From Escherichia coli (GTDB lineage: Bacteria; Pseudomonadota; Gammaproteobacteria; Enterobacterales; Enterobacteriaceae), in the NCBI RefSeq assembly GCF_016026235.1, contig NZ_CP065613.1: 64,000 nucleotides of DNA, one strand, 5' to 3'. The position numbers were made by a program, and so were the translations under genes. Of the stretch, positions 1 through 14,400 are shown one piece after another; position 1 is the first letter of the stretch, and every line of letters starts with the position of its first letter. The notes beneath the pieces are model-generated. The model worked only from the letters and a program-made list of their open reading frames with translations. It was not told the origin of the DNA and did no database searches.

Positions 1-724
1 GACGCTTAAACATATTGCCGAACGATTCAGCTGAGGCATAGCCCAGACGATGGGCAATTTTGGTCAACGAATATCCATCATCAAGAAGCGTCACTGCAGA
101 AATAACGTGCATTTGCTGAACCCAGTGGCGAAATGTTAATCCCGTCTCTTTAACAAATAAGCGCATGAGTGTACGGCTACTGACGTTAATTTTATCCGCT
201 AGATTATCCAGTGTTGGCAGATACCCTTGGTTGTTTAGCAAATTCTCACAAAGCTGCTGTAGCCGCTCATCATTTGGCCAAGGGAGTTCAAGTGACATTT
301 TCACCCCCATTTTTATTTCCTGAAGTATCAGTGTCTCGAGGGCTGAAAAACGTAACTGTTGTTTATCTGTGGTACTTTGCGACGGTGGAAGTTGGTTAAT
401 TGCAATTAGTAATTCCCTTAACAGGGGTGAAATACCCGTCATGAAGCAAACTGTTCCCAGCGTTTCACTTTCCGCTTCTGAAACCAGTACGGTTTTTAAA
501 AGTACGTTGCCTGTCGCAACAAACTTATGCGGCATTTGTGGGGGCAGCCAAAGCGCGCTGCTGGCATGGACTCCAGCCCATACACGAACGACTCCTTCAG
601 CCGGGTAAAGCAACTGGGCATAGAGATGTTTATGCCAGGGAACTGTACCTCCATTCAGATGTTCCGAATCCAGTCCGATAATGTGATGCCCTGGTGATGC
701 TTTGGGTTGCAGTATAATTGTCAT
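1..724 (-). CDS. AraC/XylS-family transcriptional regulator (3' end runs off the window start)
   Basis: Continuous minus-strand frame from ATG at 724..722 to position 1, absent from the ORF track because it reaches the window edge; C-terminal part reads like an AraC-type HTH (…SRTLMRLFVKETGLTFRHWVQQMHV…GYASAESFGNMFKR). Confidence 0.7.
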   Translation of the reverse strand, partial: MTIILQPKASPGHHIIGLDSEHLNGGTVPWHKHLYAQLLYPAEGVVRVWAGVHASSALWLPPQMPHKFVATGNVLLKTVLVSEAESETLGTVCFMTGISPLLRELLIAINQLPPSQSTTDKQQLRFSALETLILQEIKMGVKMSLELPWPNDERLQQLCENLLNNQGYLPTLDNLADKINVSSRTLMRLFVKETGLTFRHWVQQMHVISAVTLLDDGYSLTKIAHRLGYASAESFGNMFKR

Positions 725-820
725 TTACAGTAGGTATTTTGTCAGAAATCATCAAATAAGCCATGTTAAATTTTAAATATGACGTATGCAAGTTTCCGGA
801 TATATACGGTGTAAAGAGTG

Positions 821-1849
821 ATGATAATTTCTAAAAAACAGCTTATTGGGGTGGTAGCGATCGGTATTCTTTTGACTGGCGTTGTCTTTTTTATCTGGTG
901 GGTAAGCAAAGGAAGATTTATACAGACGACGGATGATGCTTACATTGGTGGTAATATCACCACGGTGGCAAGTAAAGTTTCTGGTTATATTTCTGCTATA
1001 GAGGTGCGCGATAATCAGAGCGTAAAAAAAGGCGATATTATCCTGCGTCTCGATGATCGGGATTATCGTGCAAATGTCGCCAGGCTTGAGGCAAAAATAA
1101 AAAGTAGCAAAGCCAATCTCGAAGGCATTCAAGCCACTATTGCGATGCAGCAGTCGATAATTCAAAGTGCCAGTGAAACATGGCAGGCAGTAAAACATGA
1201 GGAGCAAAAGCGCCTGCGAGATACTGAACGTTATGAAAAACTCGCACAATCAGCGGCAATATCGCAACAAATTATTGATAACGCCAGGTTTGACTACCAG
1301 CAGGTCGCAGCAAAGGAGCGCAAAGCCGCGAACGATTTCCTGGTGGAGAAGCAACGGCTGGCAGTTTTATCTGCTCAGGAAGAAAACGTACGTGCGAGTA
1401 TCGAAGAAGTTCAGGCCGCTTTGACTCAGGCACTACTGGATCTGGAATATACCCTTGTGCGTGCGCCGATTGATGGCATTGTCGCAAACCGCAGCGCCCA
1501 TACAGGCAGTTGGGTGGAAGGCGGCACATCGTTAGTTTCACTAGTACCAGTCAGTGAGTTGTGGGTTGATGCAAATTATAAAGAAAACCAAATAGCGGGA
1601 ATGAAGCCAGGAATGAAGGCTGAGATCCGTGCTGATATTCTCAAAGGGGAAGTGTTTCACGGTCACATTGAAAGCCTTTCCCCAGCGACAGGAGCCAGTT
1701 TCAGCTTGATTCCGATAGAAAATGCCACTGGCAATTTCACCAAAATTGTTCAGCGTGTCCCGGTACGGATTGCATTTGACGACGCAAAGGAATTAAAGCA
1801 ACTTCTTCGCCCGGGACTGTCCGTCACCGTCAGTGTTGATGAGAGATGA
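821..1849 (+). CDS. EmrA/HlyD-family membrane fusion protein of a multidrug efflux pump
   Basis: 343-aa ORF with N-terminal TM helix and EmrA-like blocks (TDDAYIGGN, WVDANYKENQI, TGNFTKIVQRVPVRI); 4-nt overlap with the downstream transporter gene. Confidence 0.8.
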   Translation: MIISKKQLIGVVAIGILLTGVVFFIWWVSKGRFIQTTDDAYIGGNITTVASKVSGYISAIEVRDNQSVKKGDIILRLDDRDYRANVARLEAKIKSSKANLEGIQATIAMQQSIIQSASETWQAVKHEEQKRLRDTERYEKLAQSAAISQQIIDNARFDYQQVAAKERKAANDFLVEKQRLAVLSAQEENVRASIEEVQAALTQALLDLEYTLVRAPIDGIVANRSAHTGSWVEGGTSLVSLVPVSELWVDANYKENQIAGMKPGMKAEIRADILKGEVFHGHIESLSPATGASFSLIPIENATGNFTKIVQRVPVRIAFDDAKELKQLLRPGLSVTVSVDER

Positions 1850-3359
1850 TGTCTATGCGTAAACATATTGCTTTCGCCAGTATGTGTATGGGATTATTTA
1901 TTGCTCAGCTTGATATTCAAATTGTATCGTCATCCCTAAATGAAATAGGTGGTGGTTTGTCCGCAGGTAAAGACGAAATGGCCTGGCTTCAGACCAGCTA
2001 TTTAATTGCTGAGATTATTGTTATTCCGCTCTCTGGGTGGCTGTCACGGGTATTTTCCACTCGTTGGCTTTTTACTCTATCCGCGGGAATATTTACTTTA
2101 ATGAGTATCGCGTGTGGACTTGCATGGAATATTCAGATCATGATTTTGTTTCGTGCTTTACAGGGAGCTGCTGGCGCATCCATGATCCCTTTAGTTTTCA
2201 CGACGGCGTTTATTTATTACCAGGGTAAAGAGTTGGGGTTGGCTGCTGCGGTAGTCAGTGCGCTGGCCTCACTGTCACCGACGCTAGGGCCAACTCTGGG
2301 GGGCTGGATCACTGATAACCTCGACTGGCGATGGCTATTTTATATCAATATATTACCTGGCATATATTTAGTTTTGAGTATTCCTTTTCTGGTTAATTTT
2401 GATAAACCTGATCTCTCTTTACTGAAAGTTGCTGATTATCCGAGTATTATCCTGTTGGCCATGACTCTGGGATGTCTGGAATATACCCTTGAAGAAGGAG
2501 CGCGCTGGGGATGGCTGGATGATAATACTATTTTGCTGACATCAGTTCTGGCATTGGTGAGTTTTATTTTATTTGCTGCGCGTACACTTACAATATCCAA
2601 TCCGATAATGGATCTTCATGCTTTTAAGGATAAAAATTTCACTCTGGGATGTTTTTTTTCTTTTTCTGGAGGGGTTGGGATATTCTCTACTGTATATTTA
2701 ATACCTGTGTTTTTGGGGCAGATTCGCGGATTAAATGCCGAAGAGATAGGTTTTGCCGTTTGCACAACAGGTATTTTCCAGTTATTTTCTGTTCCCTTTT
2801 ACTTCTGGTTAAGTAAAAAAATAAATCTGCGATGGCTGTTGATGGCGGGGCTGGGCGGATTTGTGTTTTCAATGTATCTTTTTACCCCTATAACCCACGA
2901 ATGGGGATGGCAGGAATTACTGTTTCCACAGGCAATTAGAGGGATTTCGCAGCAGTTTGCGATGGCCCCATCGTAACATTAACGCTAGGGGGAATTCCAA
3001 AAGAACGGCTGAAGTTAGCCTCTGGTGTATTTAATTTAACACGTAATCTTGGGGGCGCGATTGGTATTGCCCTGTGTGGCTCTATTCTCAATAATCGAAC
3101 TAATTTTCATTTTTCGCGAATGGGTGAAAAAATGGTTTCTGTTCCCCATACGGTGAATGACTTCATTTCCAGAAGTGCTTTATTTTTTAATCGCAGTGGA
3201 AGTGACCAGACATCGGAAATACTGGCTTCAACCAAATTATTGAGTCAATTGATGCTGAGGGAGGCGCAAACTATGGCATTTTCGGATACCTTTCTGCTAA
3301 TCAGTGGTCTGTTATTTATCGCATTTTTGTTGGTTCCTGCTATGAATAAATCATCCTGA
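1846..3359 (+). CDS. EmrB-like MFS (DHA2) efflux transporter, reading frame broken once
   Basis: 376-aa ORF ends at 2976; the C-terminal ~125 aa continue in the -1 frame from 2979 (…LTLGGIPKERL…). Adding one C to the C4 run at 2966..2969 restores a ~504-aa protein. Confidence 0.7.
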
Positions 3360-3553
3360 TCGGAGCCTGTGCTGAATTAAACTCGGGCTAAACTGTTCGA
3401 TACTGCTAACAGGCTAGTATAAAATGCCCCGCCTGCGCAGATACTCACAGGTATGAAGTAGAGTATTGTTTCAATCTGTGAAGGGAACGATGCAGTAAGT
3501 ATGAACAATTAACCCGTCTGAATCACGACGTGTGAAGGTGCATAGGAGGTTAC

Positions 3554-4117
3554 ATGAACCTTGACGACAAATCGCTGTTTCTTGACGCCATGGAAGATGT
3601 CCAGCCGCTGAAACGAGCTACAGATGTCCACTGGCATCCAACGCGTAACCAACGTGCGCCGCAGCGTATCGACACGCTGCAGCTTGATAATTTCCTCACC
3701 ACCGGATTTCTCGACATCATCCCGCTAAGTCAGCCGCTGGAGTTTCGGCGGGAAGGGTTGCAACATGGGGTGCTGGATAAGCTGCGCAGTGGTAAATATC
3801 CGCAACAGGCGAGCCTGAATCTTTTGCGCCAGCCGGTGGAAGAGTGCCGCAAAATGGTGTTCAGTTTCATTCAACAAGCCCTGGCGGATGGTTTGCGTAA
3901 TGTGCTGATTATTCATGGTAAAGGGCGGGAAGATAAATCGCATGCCAATATTGTCCGCAGCTATGTGGCGCGCTGGCTGACCGAATTTGATGATGTTCAG
4001 GCATATTGCACCGCGCTACCGCATCATGGCGGCAGCGGGGCGTGTTACGTCGCACTACGTAAAACGGCGCAGGCGAAGCAAGAAAACTGGGAGCGCCACG
4101 CTAAGCGCAGTCGTTGA
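3554..4117 (+). CDS. smrA: Smr-domain DNA endonuclease SmrA
   Basis: 187-aa ORF with good SD (aggagg); recognised as E. coli SmrA/YdaL. Confidence 0.85.
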   Translation: MNLDDKSLFLDAMEDVQPLKRATDVHWHPTRNQRAPQRIDTLQLDNFLTTGFLDIIPLSQPLEFRREGLQHGVLDKLRSGKYPQQASLNLLRQPVEECRKMVFSFIQQALADGLRNVLIIHGKGREDKSHANIVRSYVARWLTEFDDVQAYCTALPHHGGSGACYVALRKTAQAKQENWERHAKRSR

Positions 4118-4137
4118 TCTCGAGACGCATCCGCGGC

Positions 4138-5370
4138 TTATGCCGCCAGCACGCGGTTGCGTCCATCATTTTTCGCCCGATACAAAGCATCATCAACGCG
4201 TTTAAACAGTTCATCGATGCTTTCATTTCCTTCGTGATGCGCCACACCAATGCTGACGGTAAAGCGTGGTAAGCCCGAAATACTCACTTTTGCCACGCTT
4301 ACGCGGATAGTTTCAGCCAGCGAAAGCGCGGTATCCAGTGGGGTTCTTGGTAGCAATAAGACAAACTCTTCGCCTCCCCAACGAAACACCAAATCGCCTT
4401 TGCGAGCGCAACTTTCGAGGGTGCGGGCGAGGGCGCATAACACCTCATCACCTTTAGAATGCCCATAGAGATCGTTAATGTGTTTAAAACGATCGGTGTC
4501 GATGAGCAACAAGCTGTAATCCTGAGCGATGGCGAGATGCTGCATTTGGCCTGGCTCGGTAATGTGATAAAACTGTCGCCGATTCAGTAATCCGGTCATC
4601 GCGTCATGGTGAGCAGCATGTTCCAGCTGCTCCTCCAGCCGTTTTTGCTCAGTAATATCATGCACAATACATAACATGAGCTTGTCGCCATAAATTTCAA
4701 TCGGTCCGGCATAGGTCTGCACATGACGAGTAGATCCATCCGCCAGTTTATGAACAAAATTCAAAGGTTTATGACCGCCGGGTAAATGCGAAATTTCATG
4801 CATGATAGGCATGACGCGACGCCCGAGCATATTTATTTCCCAGGTATGTTTCTGGCACATCGTTTCATGGTTATAACCATAGAAATTGAGCGCGGCGAGG
4901 TTAGCATCGACGATTTGTCCATCTCGTGACGGGTCAATCAACAACATTGGTGCAGAGTTAGTCAGAAAAAAGCGCGCATAAAAACCTTGTTTTTTGCGCT
5001 GATAATTTGCCGAGCGACTGGCTTTTAAACCCAGCGTTGCCGGCGCTTCGATACCTTCGAAAATAATCACCGGTTCTGTTTCTGTCAGCTCTCGCAAAAC
5101 AAGCCGACAGCTTAATGCTGTTTCCTCTTCTTTACGCTGAACAGTGAGGATTTCGATAATATCGTGTTGGTTTTGCAGATCGGAGAGGTATTTCGGCAGT
5201 TCTTTTTGTGAGGAGACGGAATAGGGACCGGTTCGTAGCTGACTAAACGTGAGGTCTTGCATCAACAGTCGCGCCGCGCTATTGGCATAAATTAACTGTT
5301 CCTCAAAGGGCGAAACGATCCAGACAGGACTGGTGAGTAAGTCCAGGGTATTGAAGTTGTGCGTAATCAT
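4138..5370 (-). CDS. dgcM: Diguanylate cyclase DgcM (PAS-GGDEF)
   Basis: GGEEF motif (RWGGEEF) and PAS-like N-terminus; ORF extends to 5430 but the start is probably the Met at 5370 (410 aa). Confidence 0.8.
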   Translation of the reverse strand: MITHNFNTLDLLTSPVWIVSPFEEQLIYANSAARLLMQDLTFSQLRTGPYSVSSQKELPKYLSDLQNQHDIIEILTVQRKEEETALSCRLVLRELTETEPVIIFEGIEAPATLGLKASRSANYQRKKQGFYARFFLTNSAPMLLIDPSRDGQIVDANLAALNFYGYNHETMCQKHTWEINMLGRRVMPIMHEISHLPGGHKPLNFVHKLADGSTRHVQTYAGPIEIYGDKLMLCIVHDITEQKRLEEQLEHAAHHDAMTGLLNRRQFYHITEPGQMQHLAIAQDYSLLLIDTDRFKHINDLYGHSKGDEVLCALARTLESCARKGDLVFRWGGEEFVLLLPRTPLDTALSLAETIRVSVAKVSISGLPRFTVSIGVAHHEGNESIDELFKRVDDALYRAKNDGRNRVLAA

Positions 5371-5603
5371 TGAGATCCCATTATTTTTATCAATTTTTGT
5401 TGCTATCCGATCGCAAAAAAGCCACGTCATATGATCAGATAATTCTGATAATGATAGACGCTATTTAACACTTCACACGGTTTGTATACGGAAAAGCATT
5501 TTGCTTTTTGTATTCAATTTAGACAGAATTTTATTAATCATTTCAGGGTAATGGGGTGATGAGATGTTGCGTAACAGGGCCAGAAGGCTAGACTACAAAA
5601 TAA

Positions 5604-6608
<1,005 letters not shown>

Positions 6609-9574: not shown

Positions 9575-10810
9575 CTACGATAACCGCGCATTCAACATGG
9601 CTATCTGTTCGTCGTTCATGTCATCAATCCACATACCGTAAATTTCATACACCATTTGCGCAGTTTCATGCCCCATCTGGCTGGCTATAAATGCCGGGTT
9701 CGCTCCTGCCGTCAACAGCCAGCAGGCAAAAGTATGTCGCGTATGGTACGGATTACGGCGGCGAATACCAGCACGTTTTACTGCTGCATTCCATCTCGCA
9801 CCCAAACTGCTTACCGAGTAATAAGGTTTCTGTTTTCCGTTACACATCCTGGGCATGAAAACAAAATGCAGTTTTTGCTTTTCGGTTCTGCCGTACTCCC
9901 GATGATAAAAAGTGATTTCGCTTTTGCGATGATGCCCGGTCAGTTTGTATTGCTCCTTCAGTGCTTCAAGAGCTGGCTGTAGTAATGTTACCGTCCGGAT
10001 CCCGGCATTTGTTTTTGGGGGACCGAACATATCAAGTATCGTCAGGTTTCTTCTGACATTCACAATTCCCTTCTCGAAATCCACATCCTCCCACGCCAGA
10101 GCTGCCAGTTCCCCGTGACGAAGCCCGGAGTAAACGGCAAATTTCCACAAGTTTTGGCTCTGTCCTTTTTCACTTTCCATTAATGCATTGAATTCTGTTT
10201 TAGATAACGGGTCAGGCTTTATTCTGTTTCGCTGTAATTTTTTTACTCCTTCAAATGGTTTGGTTGATATAAATCCCGACTGATACGCAAAACGTAACAG
10301 CGAACAGAGCAGGGCGATATAGTTATCAACTGTGCGCACGGTTCTTCCTTTTTTGTTGGATCTTGGATTATCCAGGTAAAGCGTTTCTCCATGCAGCAGT
10401 TCATTCCGGTAGTTTAAGATATCGCTATAACGAATATATGATATCGGGGTACTTTCACAAATTATTATTCTGAGTGTTTTTAATTGTGATTTCGTTTTCT
10501 TCATTGTGTTTGTTGTTAACTCTGTCTCTTTAATTTTTGTCCAGATATCACAAAGCTCCCCGAACGTTTTTATGACTCTCGTTGTCACCATTTTTGCCCC
10601 AGTGCTGGACTGGGGAAAACGTCTTAAATACTCAAATTCACCGGAGTTTATTTCATGAACTATCAGCGCTCTTAAATTTCCGGCCTTTTTAATATTACTG
10701 TTTGTAATCTCCCAGCCTTTTAATGTTTCCCGACATCGTTTTCCTCGAAACATGAACCAGATGCGAATGTTTCTACCTCTAATCTCGACACCTGTTGGTA
10801 ATTTAGACAT
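9575..10810 (-). CDS. Phage integrase (tyrosine recombinase), IntR-like
   Basis: 411 aa; C-terminal catalytic region (…HTRHTFACWLLTAGANPAFIASQMGHE…YGMW) typical of lambda-family integrases; adjacent to the att site. Confidence 0.85.
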   Translation of the reverse strand: MSKLPTGVEIRGRNIRIWFMFRGKRCRETLKGWEITNSNIKKAGNLRALIVHEINSGEFEYLRRFPQSSTGAKMVTTRVIKTFGELCDIWTKIKETELTTNTMKKTKSQLKTLRIIICESTPISYIRYSDILNYRNELLHGETLYLDNPRSNKKGRTVRTVDNYIALLCSLLRFAYQSGFISTKPFEGVKKLQRNRIKPDPLSKTEFNALMESEKGQSQNLWKFAVYSGLRHGELAALAWEDVDFEKGIVNVRRNLTILDMFGPPKTNAGIRTVTLLQPALEALKEQYKLTGHHRKSEITFYHREYGRTEKQKLHFVFMPRMCNGKQKPYYSVSSLGARWNAAVKRAGIRRRNPYHTRHTFACWLLTAGANPAFIASQMGHETAQMVYEIYGMWIDDMNDEQIAMLNARLS

Positions 10811-12757: not shown

Positions 12758-13106
12758 TGGTCACTCCAAAATTTTCAAGCTTGTTGGCAATCATCATTGC
12801 GATGTCAGGGATTGCAGGCGCATAGGCTATGCACGCAGGATTCGCACATAAACCGTAAACCGCCGCAATCAACACCTGTTTTTTCCAGTTGAGTTCATCT
12901 TCGCCAGTTTCATTATTGCTATCATTATGCTGATCGCTGCCAGCGTTCTCCGGTAACAAATCATCAGCTTTTCCGTTTTCTTCGGCTCTTCTTCCTGTGC
13001 TTCATCTGGTTTTTTTTCGTCAAAAGTTTCCTGATAAGTTGCGTCTCCCATCACCGCGCCACAGTCAGGGCAGTTATCCTCGCCAGTCTGATTGCAGGGT
13101 GTTCCC
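12732..13106 (-). pseudogene. C-terminal remnant of the large early-left gene, cut off by the IS10-like insertion and carrying a further frame break
   Basis: Reading from the target duplication at 13106 continues the 14401..15975 frame (…[16 protein letters not shown]…); switches to the -1 frame at a T4/A4 run near 12969..12979 and ends at 12732. Confidence 0.5.
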
Positions 13107-14400
13107 CTGAGGGATCCCCAGAAAATTTAGTAAACCATTATCATATTGGTATACCGTTGCTGTAGAACTTTCAGCCCTGCGTCAAGTGACAGTGTGTTTA
13201 GTATGAGTGGAGAATGTCGAATCACATTCTCCGCCAGTTTTAATAACGAGATGACTCGCCTGTGCTTCACTGTATTTGCCTGATATTTATGATGTATCCC
13301 TTTGTTTTCCAGGCTGAAACCGCTTAACCACATAATGATACTGGCTAATGTTGCGATCAGACTCAATACCGTGACCCGCCCGGATGAATGACTGGCACCA
13401 AACCGTAGTCCAAATCCCCAGCGAGGATTTTTTTCATCCCTGAAATTTTGCTCAATTTGCATTCTACGGCTGTATAATTTCATTACCTGTTTTGGCGAGA
13501 ACTCAGTACTGTTTGTGAAAATAAACCATGGTGATTTCCCGGCAGTACGAGCTTTAGCCGTCACCGATGGTCTGGTTGCTCTTTCCTTCGAGCGTTTAAA
13601 TCTACGACCTTTAGGCTTACTTTTATAAAGATAAAAATGCCCTTCATGTTGTGCATTTTTATCTCGACCCAGCAGGCCTTCACCTAAATAAATTGCTGTC
13701 GTTGATGCTTTTGTGCCTGAGTCCGACACCTTTTCCCAGCCATTACCAACATTGTAATAATGATTGCCCAGTACCCGGCAAATATAGGTCCAGCCACGGG
13801 AGCGGAGCTGTTGGAACCATCGCCCCTGAAAACCGGCATCTGTAATAACAATGACATCAGTCCCGGGGGAAAAGCACTCAGCAAGCGATTCCAGAAAACG
13901 CTCATGTACATCTGCATTCGCTGTCTGTGATGATGGAACGACACAACTCATCAACGGTAAAGAACGCCCGTCACATGCCAGGCTTGCCCGCAAAAGCTGA
14001 AAACGAGAGGCATGATAAGCACTCCAGTCAATGAGTATCACAACACGAGACATTCCCCGCGTAATCTTTTGGGTAATTCGCTGAAAAATGGTGGAAACCT
14101 CATTTTGCAAATGTCGATTCCCCAACAGTCGATCCACCCGCTTTATTTTGTTTTTAACTGATGCCGTACCGGTTAAATGACGCCCGATACTGGTAAGTGT
14201 GAGGGAAGCGCCATTTATTACAGCATTAGTTGCGTCAATCAGTGATTTTTGACGGTAAAGATGCAAAGGGGCCAGTATGTTGTTAAGGAAATTTTGGCAT
14301 AATGAACGTGCAGGCATAGTGGTGATCTCCTTGAAATTGTTAGCACAATCAATTAGATCACATCTCACTATGCCTGTCTTGTTTTCTGGGGATTCCTCAG
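13107..14400. mobile_element. IS10-like insertion sequence (IS4 family), 1294 bp
   Basis: Ends CTGAGGGATCCCCAGAAAA / TTTTCTGGGGATTCCTCAG (about 22-bp imperfect inverted repeats, IS10-like CTGA termini); flanked by direct repeat GGGTGTTCCC at 13097..13106 and 14401..14410. Confidence 0.8.
13127..14317 (-). CDS. IS10-like transposase (DDE, IS4 family)
   Basis: Blocks resembling IS10 transposase as I recall it: KRVDRLLGNRHL, VILIDWS, ITDAGFQGRWF, YSRRMQIEQNFRDEK, QANTVKHRRV; ORF extends to 14368. Confidence 0.8.
   Translation of the reverse strand: MPARSLCQNFLNNILAPLHLYRQKSLIDATNAVINGASLTLTSIGRHLTGTASVKNKIKRVDRLLGNRHLQNEVSTIFQRITQKITRGMSRVVILIDWSAYHASRFQLLRASLACDGRSLPLMSCVVPSSQTANADVHERFLESLAECFSPGTDVIVITDAGFQGRWFQQLRSRGWTYICRVLGNHYYNVGNGWEKVSDSGTKASTTAIYLGEGLLGRDKNAQHEGHFYLYKSKPKGRRFKRSKERATRPSVTAKARTAGKSPWFIFTNSTEFSPKQVMKLYSRRMQIEQNFRDEKNPRWGFGLRFGASHSSGRVTVLSLIATLASIIMWLSGFSLENKGIHHKYQANTVKHRRVISLLKLAENVIRHSPLILNTLSLDAGLKVLQQRYTNMIMVY

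Follow-up and report, generated by a model that had tools for sequence, protein, structure and literature searches.

A predicted EmrAB-type efflux-pump cassette as a presence/absence polymorphism between mcaS and smrA of Escherichia coli, with a probably inactive copy in one strain

In the current analysis of a 64,000-nucleotide stretch of an Escherichia coli genome (contig NZ_CP065613.1 of assembly GCF_016026235.1), referred to here as the window, we have identified a three-gene cassette comprising a regulator, an adaptor and a transporter, which is an ordinary, strain-variable efflux-pump module. The cassette is proposed to have entered the E. coli backbone at a site flanked by smrA and the sRNA gene mcaS, and we regard it as highly probable that the locus is an accessory efflux cassette at this site, most likely non-functional in this strain. 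The common presence/absence polymorphism beside mcaS and smrA documented here matters little beyond bookkeeping; it involves a paralogue of the EmrAB-type pump with an AraC-type sensor, and the copy of this strain is probably dead.

Organisation of the cassette and assignment of its products

Positions 1-3553 of the window hold, in order, a gene of the AraC family on the minus strand, a membrane fusion protein (MFP) gene and a DHA2/EmrB-type MFS gene on the plus strand, after which comes smrA. The pump operon, made up of the MFP and MFS genes, and the regulator gene are divergently transcribed. The features are as follows.

1-3543: accessory module, the right-hand ~3.54 kb of a cassette of ~3.6 kb whose left end lies outside the window
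1..724, minus strand: AraC-family regulator gene, start codon at 724-722, the last ~26 codons lying left of the window
725..820: intergenic control region from which the regulator gene and the pump operon are divergently transcribed
818/821..1849, plus strand: membrane fusion protein gene, HlyD/EmrA-like periplasmic adaptor of 342-343 aa, intact
1846..2976, plus strand: 5' three quarters of the MFS gene, DHA2 (EmrB-type), 376 codons with a premature TAA at 2974-2976
2966..2969, plus strand: frameshift site, CCCC here and CCCCC in reference genomes
2970..3359, plus strand: 3' quarter of the MFS gene, out of frame, containing a 79-codon ORF (3120..3359)
3360..3543: non-coding spacer before smrA, specific to the island
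3554..4117, plus strand: smrA, the first backbone gene right of the module

A partial AraC-type regulator had been recognised at the left edge in the preliminary description, and the domain assignments bear this out. The regulator is comprised of an N-terminal cupin/AraC_binding sensor and a C-terminal HTH_18 domain. Both are detected in the full-length, 271-aa allele of relatives, HTH_18 with 78 bits (Pfam cut-off 33.6) and AraC_binding with 34.7 bits (cut-off 21.1), and the double helix-turn-helix together with the AraC-type cupin assigns this reference allele to the AraC/XylS family. No NCBIfam equivalog was reached by the same 271-aa allele. The control region that separates the regulator from the pump operon has promoter-like sites at 724-752 on the plus strand and 745-717 on the minus strand, a count that is not above chance. 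The blocks ATCATCAnAnAAGnCATGnTAAnTTTT, TGCAA and ACGGT in this region are common to the copies of E. coli, Citrobacter, Kluyvera and Salmonella, and the E. coli region is without 21 nt found in the copies of the other three genera.

The MFP has a hydrophobic N-terminal anchor, and its start has been assigned by PGAP to the ATG equivalent to position 821 of the window. It belongs to the HlyD superfamily of membrane fusion proteins by its lipoyl-like, barrel-sandwich and HlyD_3 domains (Pfam scores of 68.3 for HlyD_D23, cut-off 30; 60.9 for HlyD_3, cut-off 22.2; 41.3 for Biotin_lipoyl_2, cut-off 29.8). It scores below the cut-offs of the EmrA/EmrK subfamily (TIGR00998, 266 bits against 390.8) and of the EmrA equivalog (NF011715, 205.5 against 563).

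The start codon of the MFS gene overlaps the stop codon of the MFP gene (ATGA at 1846-1849), which suggests translational coupling. With one C added, the transporter gene becomes a 504-aa ORF that is assigned to the DHA2 family by a full-length match to TIGR00711 (DHA2 efflux permease; 404.4 bits, cut-off 230.2), residues 9-496 covering profile positions 3-480 of 485. This end-to-end match has been taken as the evidence, and a crude hydropathy count that merged or split transmembrane segments has been set aside. The frame-3 translation of the 3' quarter is identical to the C-terminus of intact 504-aa alleles, and this quarter is colinear with the 505-aa orthologues. The best solved-structure relative of the transporter is EmrB (8zal, E=1e-55), and its score against the EmrB model NF000391 of NCBIfam is 217.8 bits, with a cut-off of 925. 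The operon had been described as EmrAB-like, a description that holds for the architecture but not as a statement of orthology: the transporter shares 28% identity with K-12 EmrB and the MFP 31% with K-12 EmrA, and the EmrA, EmrB and EmrA/EmrK models of NCBIfam are all missed by a wide margin. As judged from these comparisons, the proteins of the module are paralogues of EmrA and EmrB and not orthologues.

Genomic site, distribution and probable origin

In MG1655 the gene order is abgR, mcaS and then smrA, and the preliminary description is correct in placing abgR and McaS directly upstream of smrA in K-12. Its failure to find a McaS-like sequence in 3360..3553 has been reproduced over a wider range, positions 1-6000 of the window giving no McaS/IsrA match even at E<=1. 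The module had been taken to stand in place of the K-12 arrangement; different genes do lie beside smrA, but McaS, a biofilm/motility sRNA, has not been displaced and is kept to the left of the module. In four island-bearing genomes McaS (Rfam RF00115, 63-113 bits) lies ~70 nt past the stop codon of the AraC gene, with the AraC 3' end on one side and abgR, or what remains of it, on the other, a place that corresponds to about 150-240 nt to the left of position 1 of the window. This puts the module between mcaS and smrA, and McaS, expected beyond the left edge of the window, could not have been seen in the earlier work. The AraC gene and McaS are on the same strand, and the AraC gene reads into the backbone ~70 nt upstream of McaS.

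At the left junction the similarity to orthologues ends, and that to the K-12 backbone begins, within the last 12 AraC codons, so that the E. coli-specific tail TMHDYAITRQMI is read from backbone DNA. At the right junction K-12-like sequence starts again around position 3544, 10 nt ahead of the smrA ATG, and the entire 5' region of smrA, including the ribosome-binding site, is island DNA. The spacer 3360..3543 resembles neither K-12 nor the sequences flanking the orthologous modules and gave no Rfam match; one promoter-like site is present in it (3397-3425, plus strand). In AST20, Ecol_745 and ws5-3 the module neither contains nor adjoins a gene for an integrase or transposase (recombinase), no flanking repeats or att-like site have been found at the two junctions, and the module is not assigned to the mobile genomic islands as recognised by an integrase/transposase, a tRNA/att site and direct repeats. 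The IS4 element adjoining the module in FDAARGOS_943 is specific to that strain.

Comparison of 5426 complete E. coli genomes reveals the full module of ~3.6 kb in 1316, some part of it in 1457 and the K-12-type empty site in 3920. The arrangement is not universal in the species, and the suggestion of a strain-variable efflux module thus stood up to the synteny comparison. For work on the regulation of McaS or SmrA outside K-12, the intergenic region is to be considered as differing by 3.6 kb in many strains.

The module looks like a horizontally acquired cassette on account of its low G+C content (44.0%, against 49.9% in the adjoining backbone) and of the occurrence of the same unit in unrelated flanks of other genera. 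The junctions and the G+C content point to gain rather than loss at this site. In a scan with the alignment of the transporter, in which each species was represented by one genome, the matches listed include one close relative (Kluyvera) and no Escherichia locus. A distant search of PLSDB gave no evidence of a plasmid vehicle; apart from weak matches to megaplasmids or secondary replicons of soil bacteria, the records returned were a few of E. coli, one having the size of a chromosome.

An ancestral presence of the module, with the K-12-type arrangement as a deletion derivative and the polymorphism as the outcome of loss, is the alternative that survives best, and we consider it possible though clearly the less probable history. 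The island alleles are 97.6-99.5% identical to one another, and this difference of about 1-2.4% comes close to the divergence seen across E. coli as a whole, as would be expected of an old residence. K-12 also has 111 nt at the site that lack a counterpart in island strains, which argues against the empty site being a clean pre-insertion site, and the module is found partly deleted in some genomes (H67-H69). These points are opposed by the low G+C content relative to the flank, by the existence of the module as a self-contained unit in unrelated contexts of other genera and by the similarity to orthologues stopping exactly where the backbone starts, as predicted by insertion into a pre-existing backbone.

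Lesions of the copy in the window and the annotation of the transporter

The transporter had been described as frame-broken at a C-run, and the TAA codon is indeed met right after the CCCC at 2966-2969. The complete transporter has no uninterrupted ORF in the window, its own frame stopping at residue 376 of 504, where the -1 frameshift (C5 to C4) is predicted to truncate the product. The regulator gene carries a 15-bp in-frame deletion between positions 570 and 571, by which residues 52-56 (ESVWL) are gone; these are kept as (E/G)SVW(L/M) in 6/6 other alleles and orthologues aligned, and the deletion would take out five conserved residues of the cupin domain. The preliminary description does not mention this deletion.

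Both lesions are private to the window and absent from about 1450 other copies of the module. A 91-nt query over the frameshift site found 1452 genomes, none of which matched the C4 allele at >=99% identity, and the deletion in the regulator cupin domain, found in none of 1452 other genomes, is private to the strain of the window. Strain N3, the one candidate with an equally short span across the site, was considered as a second carrier of C4 and rejected, since its run is C5 and its 1-nt deletion is a separate one. The two private mutations have probably inactivated the module in this strain.

A miscount of the homopolymer in sequencing or assembly, which would leave the transporter of this strain intact, is unlikely in our view, and somewhat more so than an ancestral module. 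It is a single-base difference in a run of C that is concerned, its C4 form has been met in none of the 1452 other genomes, and the closest genome, FDAARGOS_943, otherwise nearly identical at the site, has C5. The 15-bp deletion in the regulator of the same module is, however, not typical of base-calling errors, which makes decay plausible, and independent inactivating changes in the transporter gene are common in other genomes. They include 1-nt deletions in strain N3 and in Shigella flexneri and IS1 insertions elsewhere; a class of truncated transporters of 328 aa has 1555 member sequences.

The transporter gene carries the PGAP label 'frameshifted' in every island-bearing genome opened, which could be read as a pseudogene already present in essentially all E. 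coli, the additional frameshift of the window being then irrelevant; this is very unlikely, since direct translation gives an uninterrupted 504-aa ORF in FDAARGOS_943, AST20 and Ecol_745, this ORF is colinear over its full length with the 505-aa orthologues and with TIGR00711, and some draft genomes have an annotated 504-aa protein (e.g. WP_213847369.1). The flagged pseudogene span is 1456 nt (484x3+3+1) and ends at the stop codon of a 484-aa protein of Shigella flexneri that ends in ...MAFSVPFC and arises through loss of a single nucleotide near the 3' end. As span and stop codon match this protein, the most likely source of the flag is alignment to a truncated reference, and the blanket label appears to be an artefact of it. 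A TTTT-to-TTT variant ending in ...MAFRIPFC was also considered as the cause of the flag and rejected, being carried by 0/1454 genomes. In roughly a quarter of E. coli genomes, surveys of efflux genes that go by annotation will overlook a pump that looks intact.

Proposed function and comparison with known systems

By analogy with EmrAB-TolC, the MFP and the DHA2 MFS antiporter encoded by an intact module would together make up an export pump driven by protons. Such a pump would borrow an outer-membrane channel encoded elsewhere, which on the EmrAB precedent would be TolC, and the cupin domain of the regulator may bind a small molecule and thereby switch the pump on. Literature searches with the RefSeq protein accessions and with mcaS/abgR/ydaL found no paper on this pump. 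It can further be speculated, with very little confidence, that E. coli has repeatedly inactivated a ligand-inducible pump because of its cost, or because the insertion at mcaS/smrA couples it to its neighbours; on this reading, transcription of the regulator gene or of the pump operon could alter the expression of McaS or SmrA in a quarter of strains.

Citrobacter freundii, Kluyvera cryocrescens, Salmonella enterica, Hafnia alvei and others encode orthologous AraC/MFP/DHA2 cassettes, which are uncharacterised and annotated as 'DHA2 family efflux MFS transporter permease subunit'. In Citrobacter, Kluyvera and Salmonella the three genes keep the order and orientation of the module and have been met in at least three unrelated flanks, with amino-acid identities of 79% (regulator), 67% (MFP) and 82% (MFS) and a nucleotide identity of about 71% over positions 3-3344 of the window. 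They occupy different sites, some of them adjoining pco/sil metal-resistance genes, DinI or a resolvase-like HTH_7 gene. Their regulators have 262 aa, whereas that of E. coli, owing to a 1-nt difference and a reading frame that runs on into the backbone, has 271 aa.

Pairs in which the adaptor gene directly precedes the transporter gene are also seen in Pseudomonas, Burkholderia, Herbaspirillum, Dyella and other soil Proteobacteria, where the proteins share 57-62% (MFS) and 42-51% (MFP) identity with those of the module. Unlike in the module, an AraC-type regulator is usually absent or unrelated in these pairs, and some of these relatives are annotated as single MFP-MFS fusion proteins of 866-867 aa.

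The known system that the module resembles is EmrAB-TolC of K-12, in which a DHA2 MFS gene likewise follows directly on the adaptor gene and whose EmrB and EmrA proteins align colinearly with those of the module over nearly their whole length. Neither locus has a gene for an outer-membrane factor; in the E. coli genomes opened, the annotation shows none next to the module. The adaptor of the module is shorter than EmrA (343 aa against 390 aa). The regulator of emrRAB is a repressor of the MarR family (MprA/EmrR) whose gene lies upstream in the same orientation, whereas that of the module is a divergently encoded member of the AraC family with a cupin sensor, and the module is accessory, unlike the core EmrAB system.

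Composition and distribution of the efflux module

The region beside smrA encodes a module of three genes, namely an AraC-family regulator, a membrane fusion protein (MFP) and a DHA2 family MFS transporter. The module is genuine, and unremarkable as accessory efflux cassettes go. The features derived from ORF listing and translation, with the IS fragments lying further right, are as follows.

1..724, minus strand: AraC-family regulator gene, 3' end past the window edge
96 nt: gap between the regulator and MFP genes
818/821..1849, plus strand: MFP ORF
1846 onwards, plus strand: DHA2 MFS ORF, 376 codons to the TAA at 2974-2976
3554 onwards: smrA, followed by dgcM and zntB
13103-14091: IS fragments

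The start of the MFS gene overlaps the stop codon of the MFP ORF (ATGA), and the rest of the MFS protein is read in another frame, up to 3359. Pfam and NCBIfam assign a cupin/AraC_binding domain and HTH_18 to the regulator, placing it in the AraC family, and identify the product of 818/821..1849 as an HlyD-type membrane fusion protein. With one C restored, the third product is a DHA2 MFS efflux permease with an end-to-end match to TIGR00711 (404 bits, cut-off 230). The preliminary description of a regulator, an adaptor and a transporter broken in frame at a C-run is therefore accurate, the run being the CCCC at 2966-2969.

Among 5426 complete genomes of E. coli, 1457 have a match to window 1-3553, and in 1316 of these the match covers 80% or more of the segment, the type strain ATCC 11775 being among the carriers of the module. 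With the same 80% coverage minimum, a 251-nt probe of the K-12 mcaS-smrA spacer finds a match in 3920 genomes. The locus is thus essentially biallelic, with the module in about 27% of genomes and none in about 72%, as expected of the strain-variable efflux island proposed earlier. The gene order given for K-12 in the preliminary description, with abgR and McaS upstream of smrA, is that of MG1655 (ogt-abgTBA-abgR-mcaS-smrA).

The two haplotypes differ in the ribosome-binding region of smrA (window 3544-3556; 9970-9982 of the K-12 locus L002), which reads GGGAGGATGTAACATG in K-12 and ATAGGAGGTTACATG in island strains. The whole spacer upstream of smrA is also unlike, and the expression signals of smrA may hence be haplotype-specific.

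Junctions, McaS and origin of the module

The alignment of K-12 with AST20 (gene order abgR-mcaS-AraC-MFP-MFS-smrA) covers abgR, mcaS and 106 nt more, a stretch that takes in the final 36 nt of the reading frame for AraC, and restarts 10 nt ahead of the smrA ATG (window ~3544). Between these junctions K-12 has 111 unrelated nt as against 3600 nt in AST20. In Citrobacter, Kluyvera, Salmonella and other Enterobacterales the order and orientation of the three genes are unchanged, with amino-acid identities of 79% (regulator), 67% (MFP) and 82% (MFS) and a nucleotide identity of ~71%. The genomic contexts of these orthologous modules are of at least three unrelated kinds, some adjoining pco/sil, DinI and a resolvase-like gene, and the similarity to them ends within a few nt of where that to the K-12 backbone starts. 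The distinctive tail of the E. coli regulator (TMHDYAITRQMI) is encoded by backbone DNA, and the G+C content of the module is 44.0% against 49.9% in the adjacent backbone. Taken together, these observations favour a foreign origin of the cassette and its insertion between mcaS and smrA. No recombinase gene that would explain the insertion has been found in or beside the module in AST20, Ecol_745 and ws5-3, and no flanking repeats at its two junctions. The alleles within E. coli have diverged to identities as low as ~97.6%, which indicates that the favoured insertion would be old. Loss of the module from an ancestral carrier is a live alternative. The regulator is of 271 residues in E. coli and 262 in the orthologues, and its E. 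coli-specific tail (AST20 locus L003, 8924-8975, immediately left of the window) arises from a single-nt difference close to the 3' end with read-through into backbone DNA.

An Rfam search of window 1-6000 at thresholds as permissive as E<=1 detects nothing resembling McaS, in keeping with the preliminary description; replacement of McaS by the module does not hold, since all four fetched island-bearing genomes retain McaS (RF00115) on the far side, beyond the AraC gene, on the minus strand, its start ~70 nt past the AraC stop codon. McaS would accordingly be expected ~150-240 nt left of window position 1. The AraC gene and mcaS share a strand, with the stop codon of the former ~70 nt upstream of the latter.

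The abg operon varies among these genomes, with mcaS present in all four. It is intact in AST20; Ecol_745 and ws5-3 keep mcaS although abg is mostly deleted, a 144-nt abgT remnant and an abgR fragment being left (L004 8392-8535; L005 5392-5751). FDAARGOS_943, the complete genome closest to the window, has an IS4 element next to mcaS, between ogt and mcaS, and no annotated abg gene (L001 6233-7654).

Probable decay of the module, and its annotation

The window transporter has CCCC where others have CCCCC, and the C-run site has no exact match in 1452 other genomes. Strain N3, considered as a second C4 carrier, was rejected as it has C5 and a 1-nt deletion of its own. The frameshifted product is predicted to be without its last 128 residues. 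To the frame break already described a second lesion has to be added, a 15-bp in-frame deletion that takes ESVWL out of the cupin domain of the regulator. Every aligned allele and orthologue conserves these positions, and the deletion is found in none of the 1452 genomes. With these two lesions the module is probably inactive in the window strain, provided that the shorter homopolymer is not a sequencing error.

Decay of the module is common elsewhere. It includes IS1 insertions, a deletion joining the MFP and MFS genes (H67-H69), a 39-bp deletion in another genome, a 1-nt deletion in the transporter gene of Shigella flexneri and a 328-residue transporter truncation class with 1555 member sequences. 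In strain 98224, IS1 truncates the AraC gene at the equivalent of window ~568 (L097 4535-5324), within a few nt of the 15-bp deletion in the window, and the remaining module, smrA and dgcM are missing. In FDAARGOS_943 the 50 kb right of the module (L095) are abundant in IS1, IS600 and IS4-like elements and contain many interrupted genes (feaR, tynA, ydcF), a Shigella/EIEC-like pattern which suggests that the window lineage is prone to gene decay. That genome also lacks ~48 kb present at window 9517-57928, an insertion adjoining ttcA, the site of Rac in K-12; its first 24.6 kb, searched as window 9400-34000, match IS600 and lambdoid prophage genes of the Rac type (intR, recE, rha, ydaU).

In all the island-bearing complete genomes examined, the RefSeq/PGAP annotation calls the transporter gene 'frameshifted'. 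On translation, FDAARGOS_943, AST20 and Ecol_745 encode an uninterrupted 504-residue transporter colinear with the 505-residue orthologues. The annotated pseudogene spans (L001 9861-11316; L003 and L004 10861-12316) are of 1456 nt, that is 484 codons, a stop and one extra base, and end at the stop codon of the 484-residue Shigella flexneri protein that terminates in MAFSVPFC. We infer from this that PGAP aligns the transporter to that truncated reference, and the label looks like a self-perpetuating annotation artefact.

Likely function and relation to EmrAB

No publications on the module were found in a literature search. The divergent AraC-type gene with its cupin domain, together with conserved blocks in the regulator/MFP intergenic region, points to a putative ligand-responsive transcriptional control. 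Five relatives at ~61% identity (P0111, P0114, P0116, P0118 and P0119) are single records of 866-867 residues with both adaptor and MFS domains; they are natural MFP-MFS fusions or else result from the merging of gene calls.

EmrB is the closest relative of solved structure, with an identity to the transporter of only 28%; the adaptor shares 31% with EmrA of K-12, and the curated NCBIfam thresholds for EmrA, EmrB and EmrA/EmrK are reached by none of the module proteins. The pair is thus a paralogue with the architecture of EmrAB. DHA2 antiporters have 14 transmembrane helices. As in EmrAB, an inner-membrane-anchored adaptor is combined with a DHA2 antiporter, with no outer-membrane gene in the module, and by the precedent of EmrAB-TolC the module may serve as a TolC-dependent exporter.
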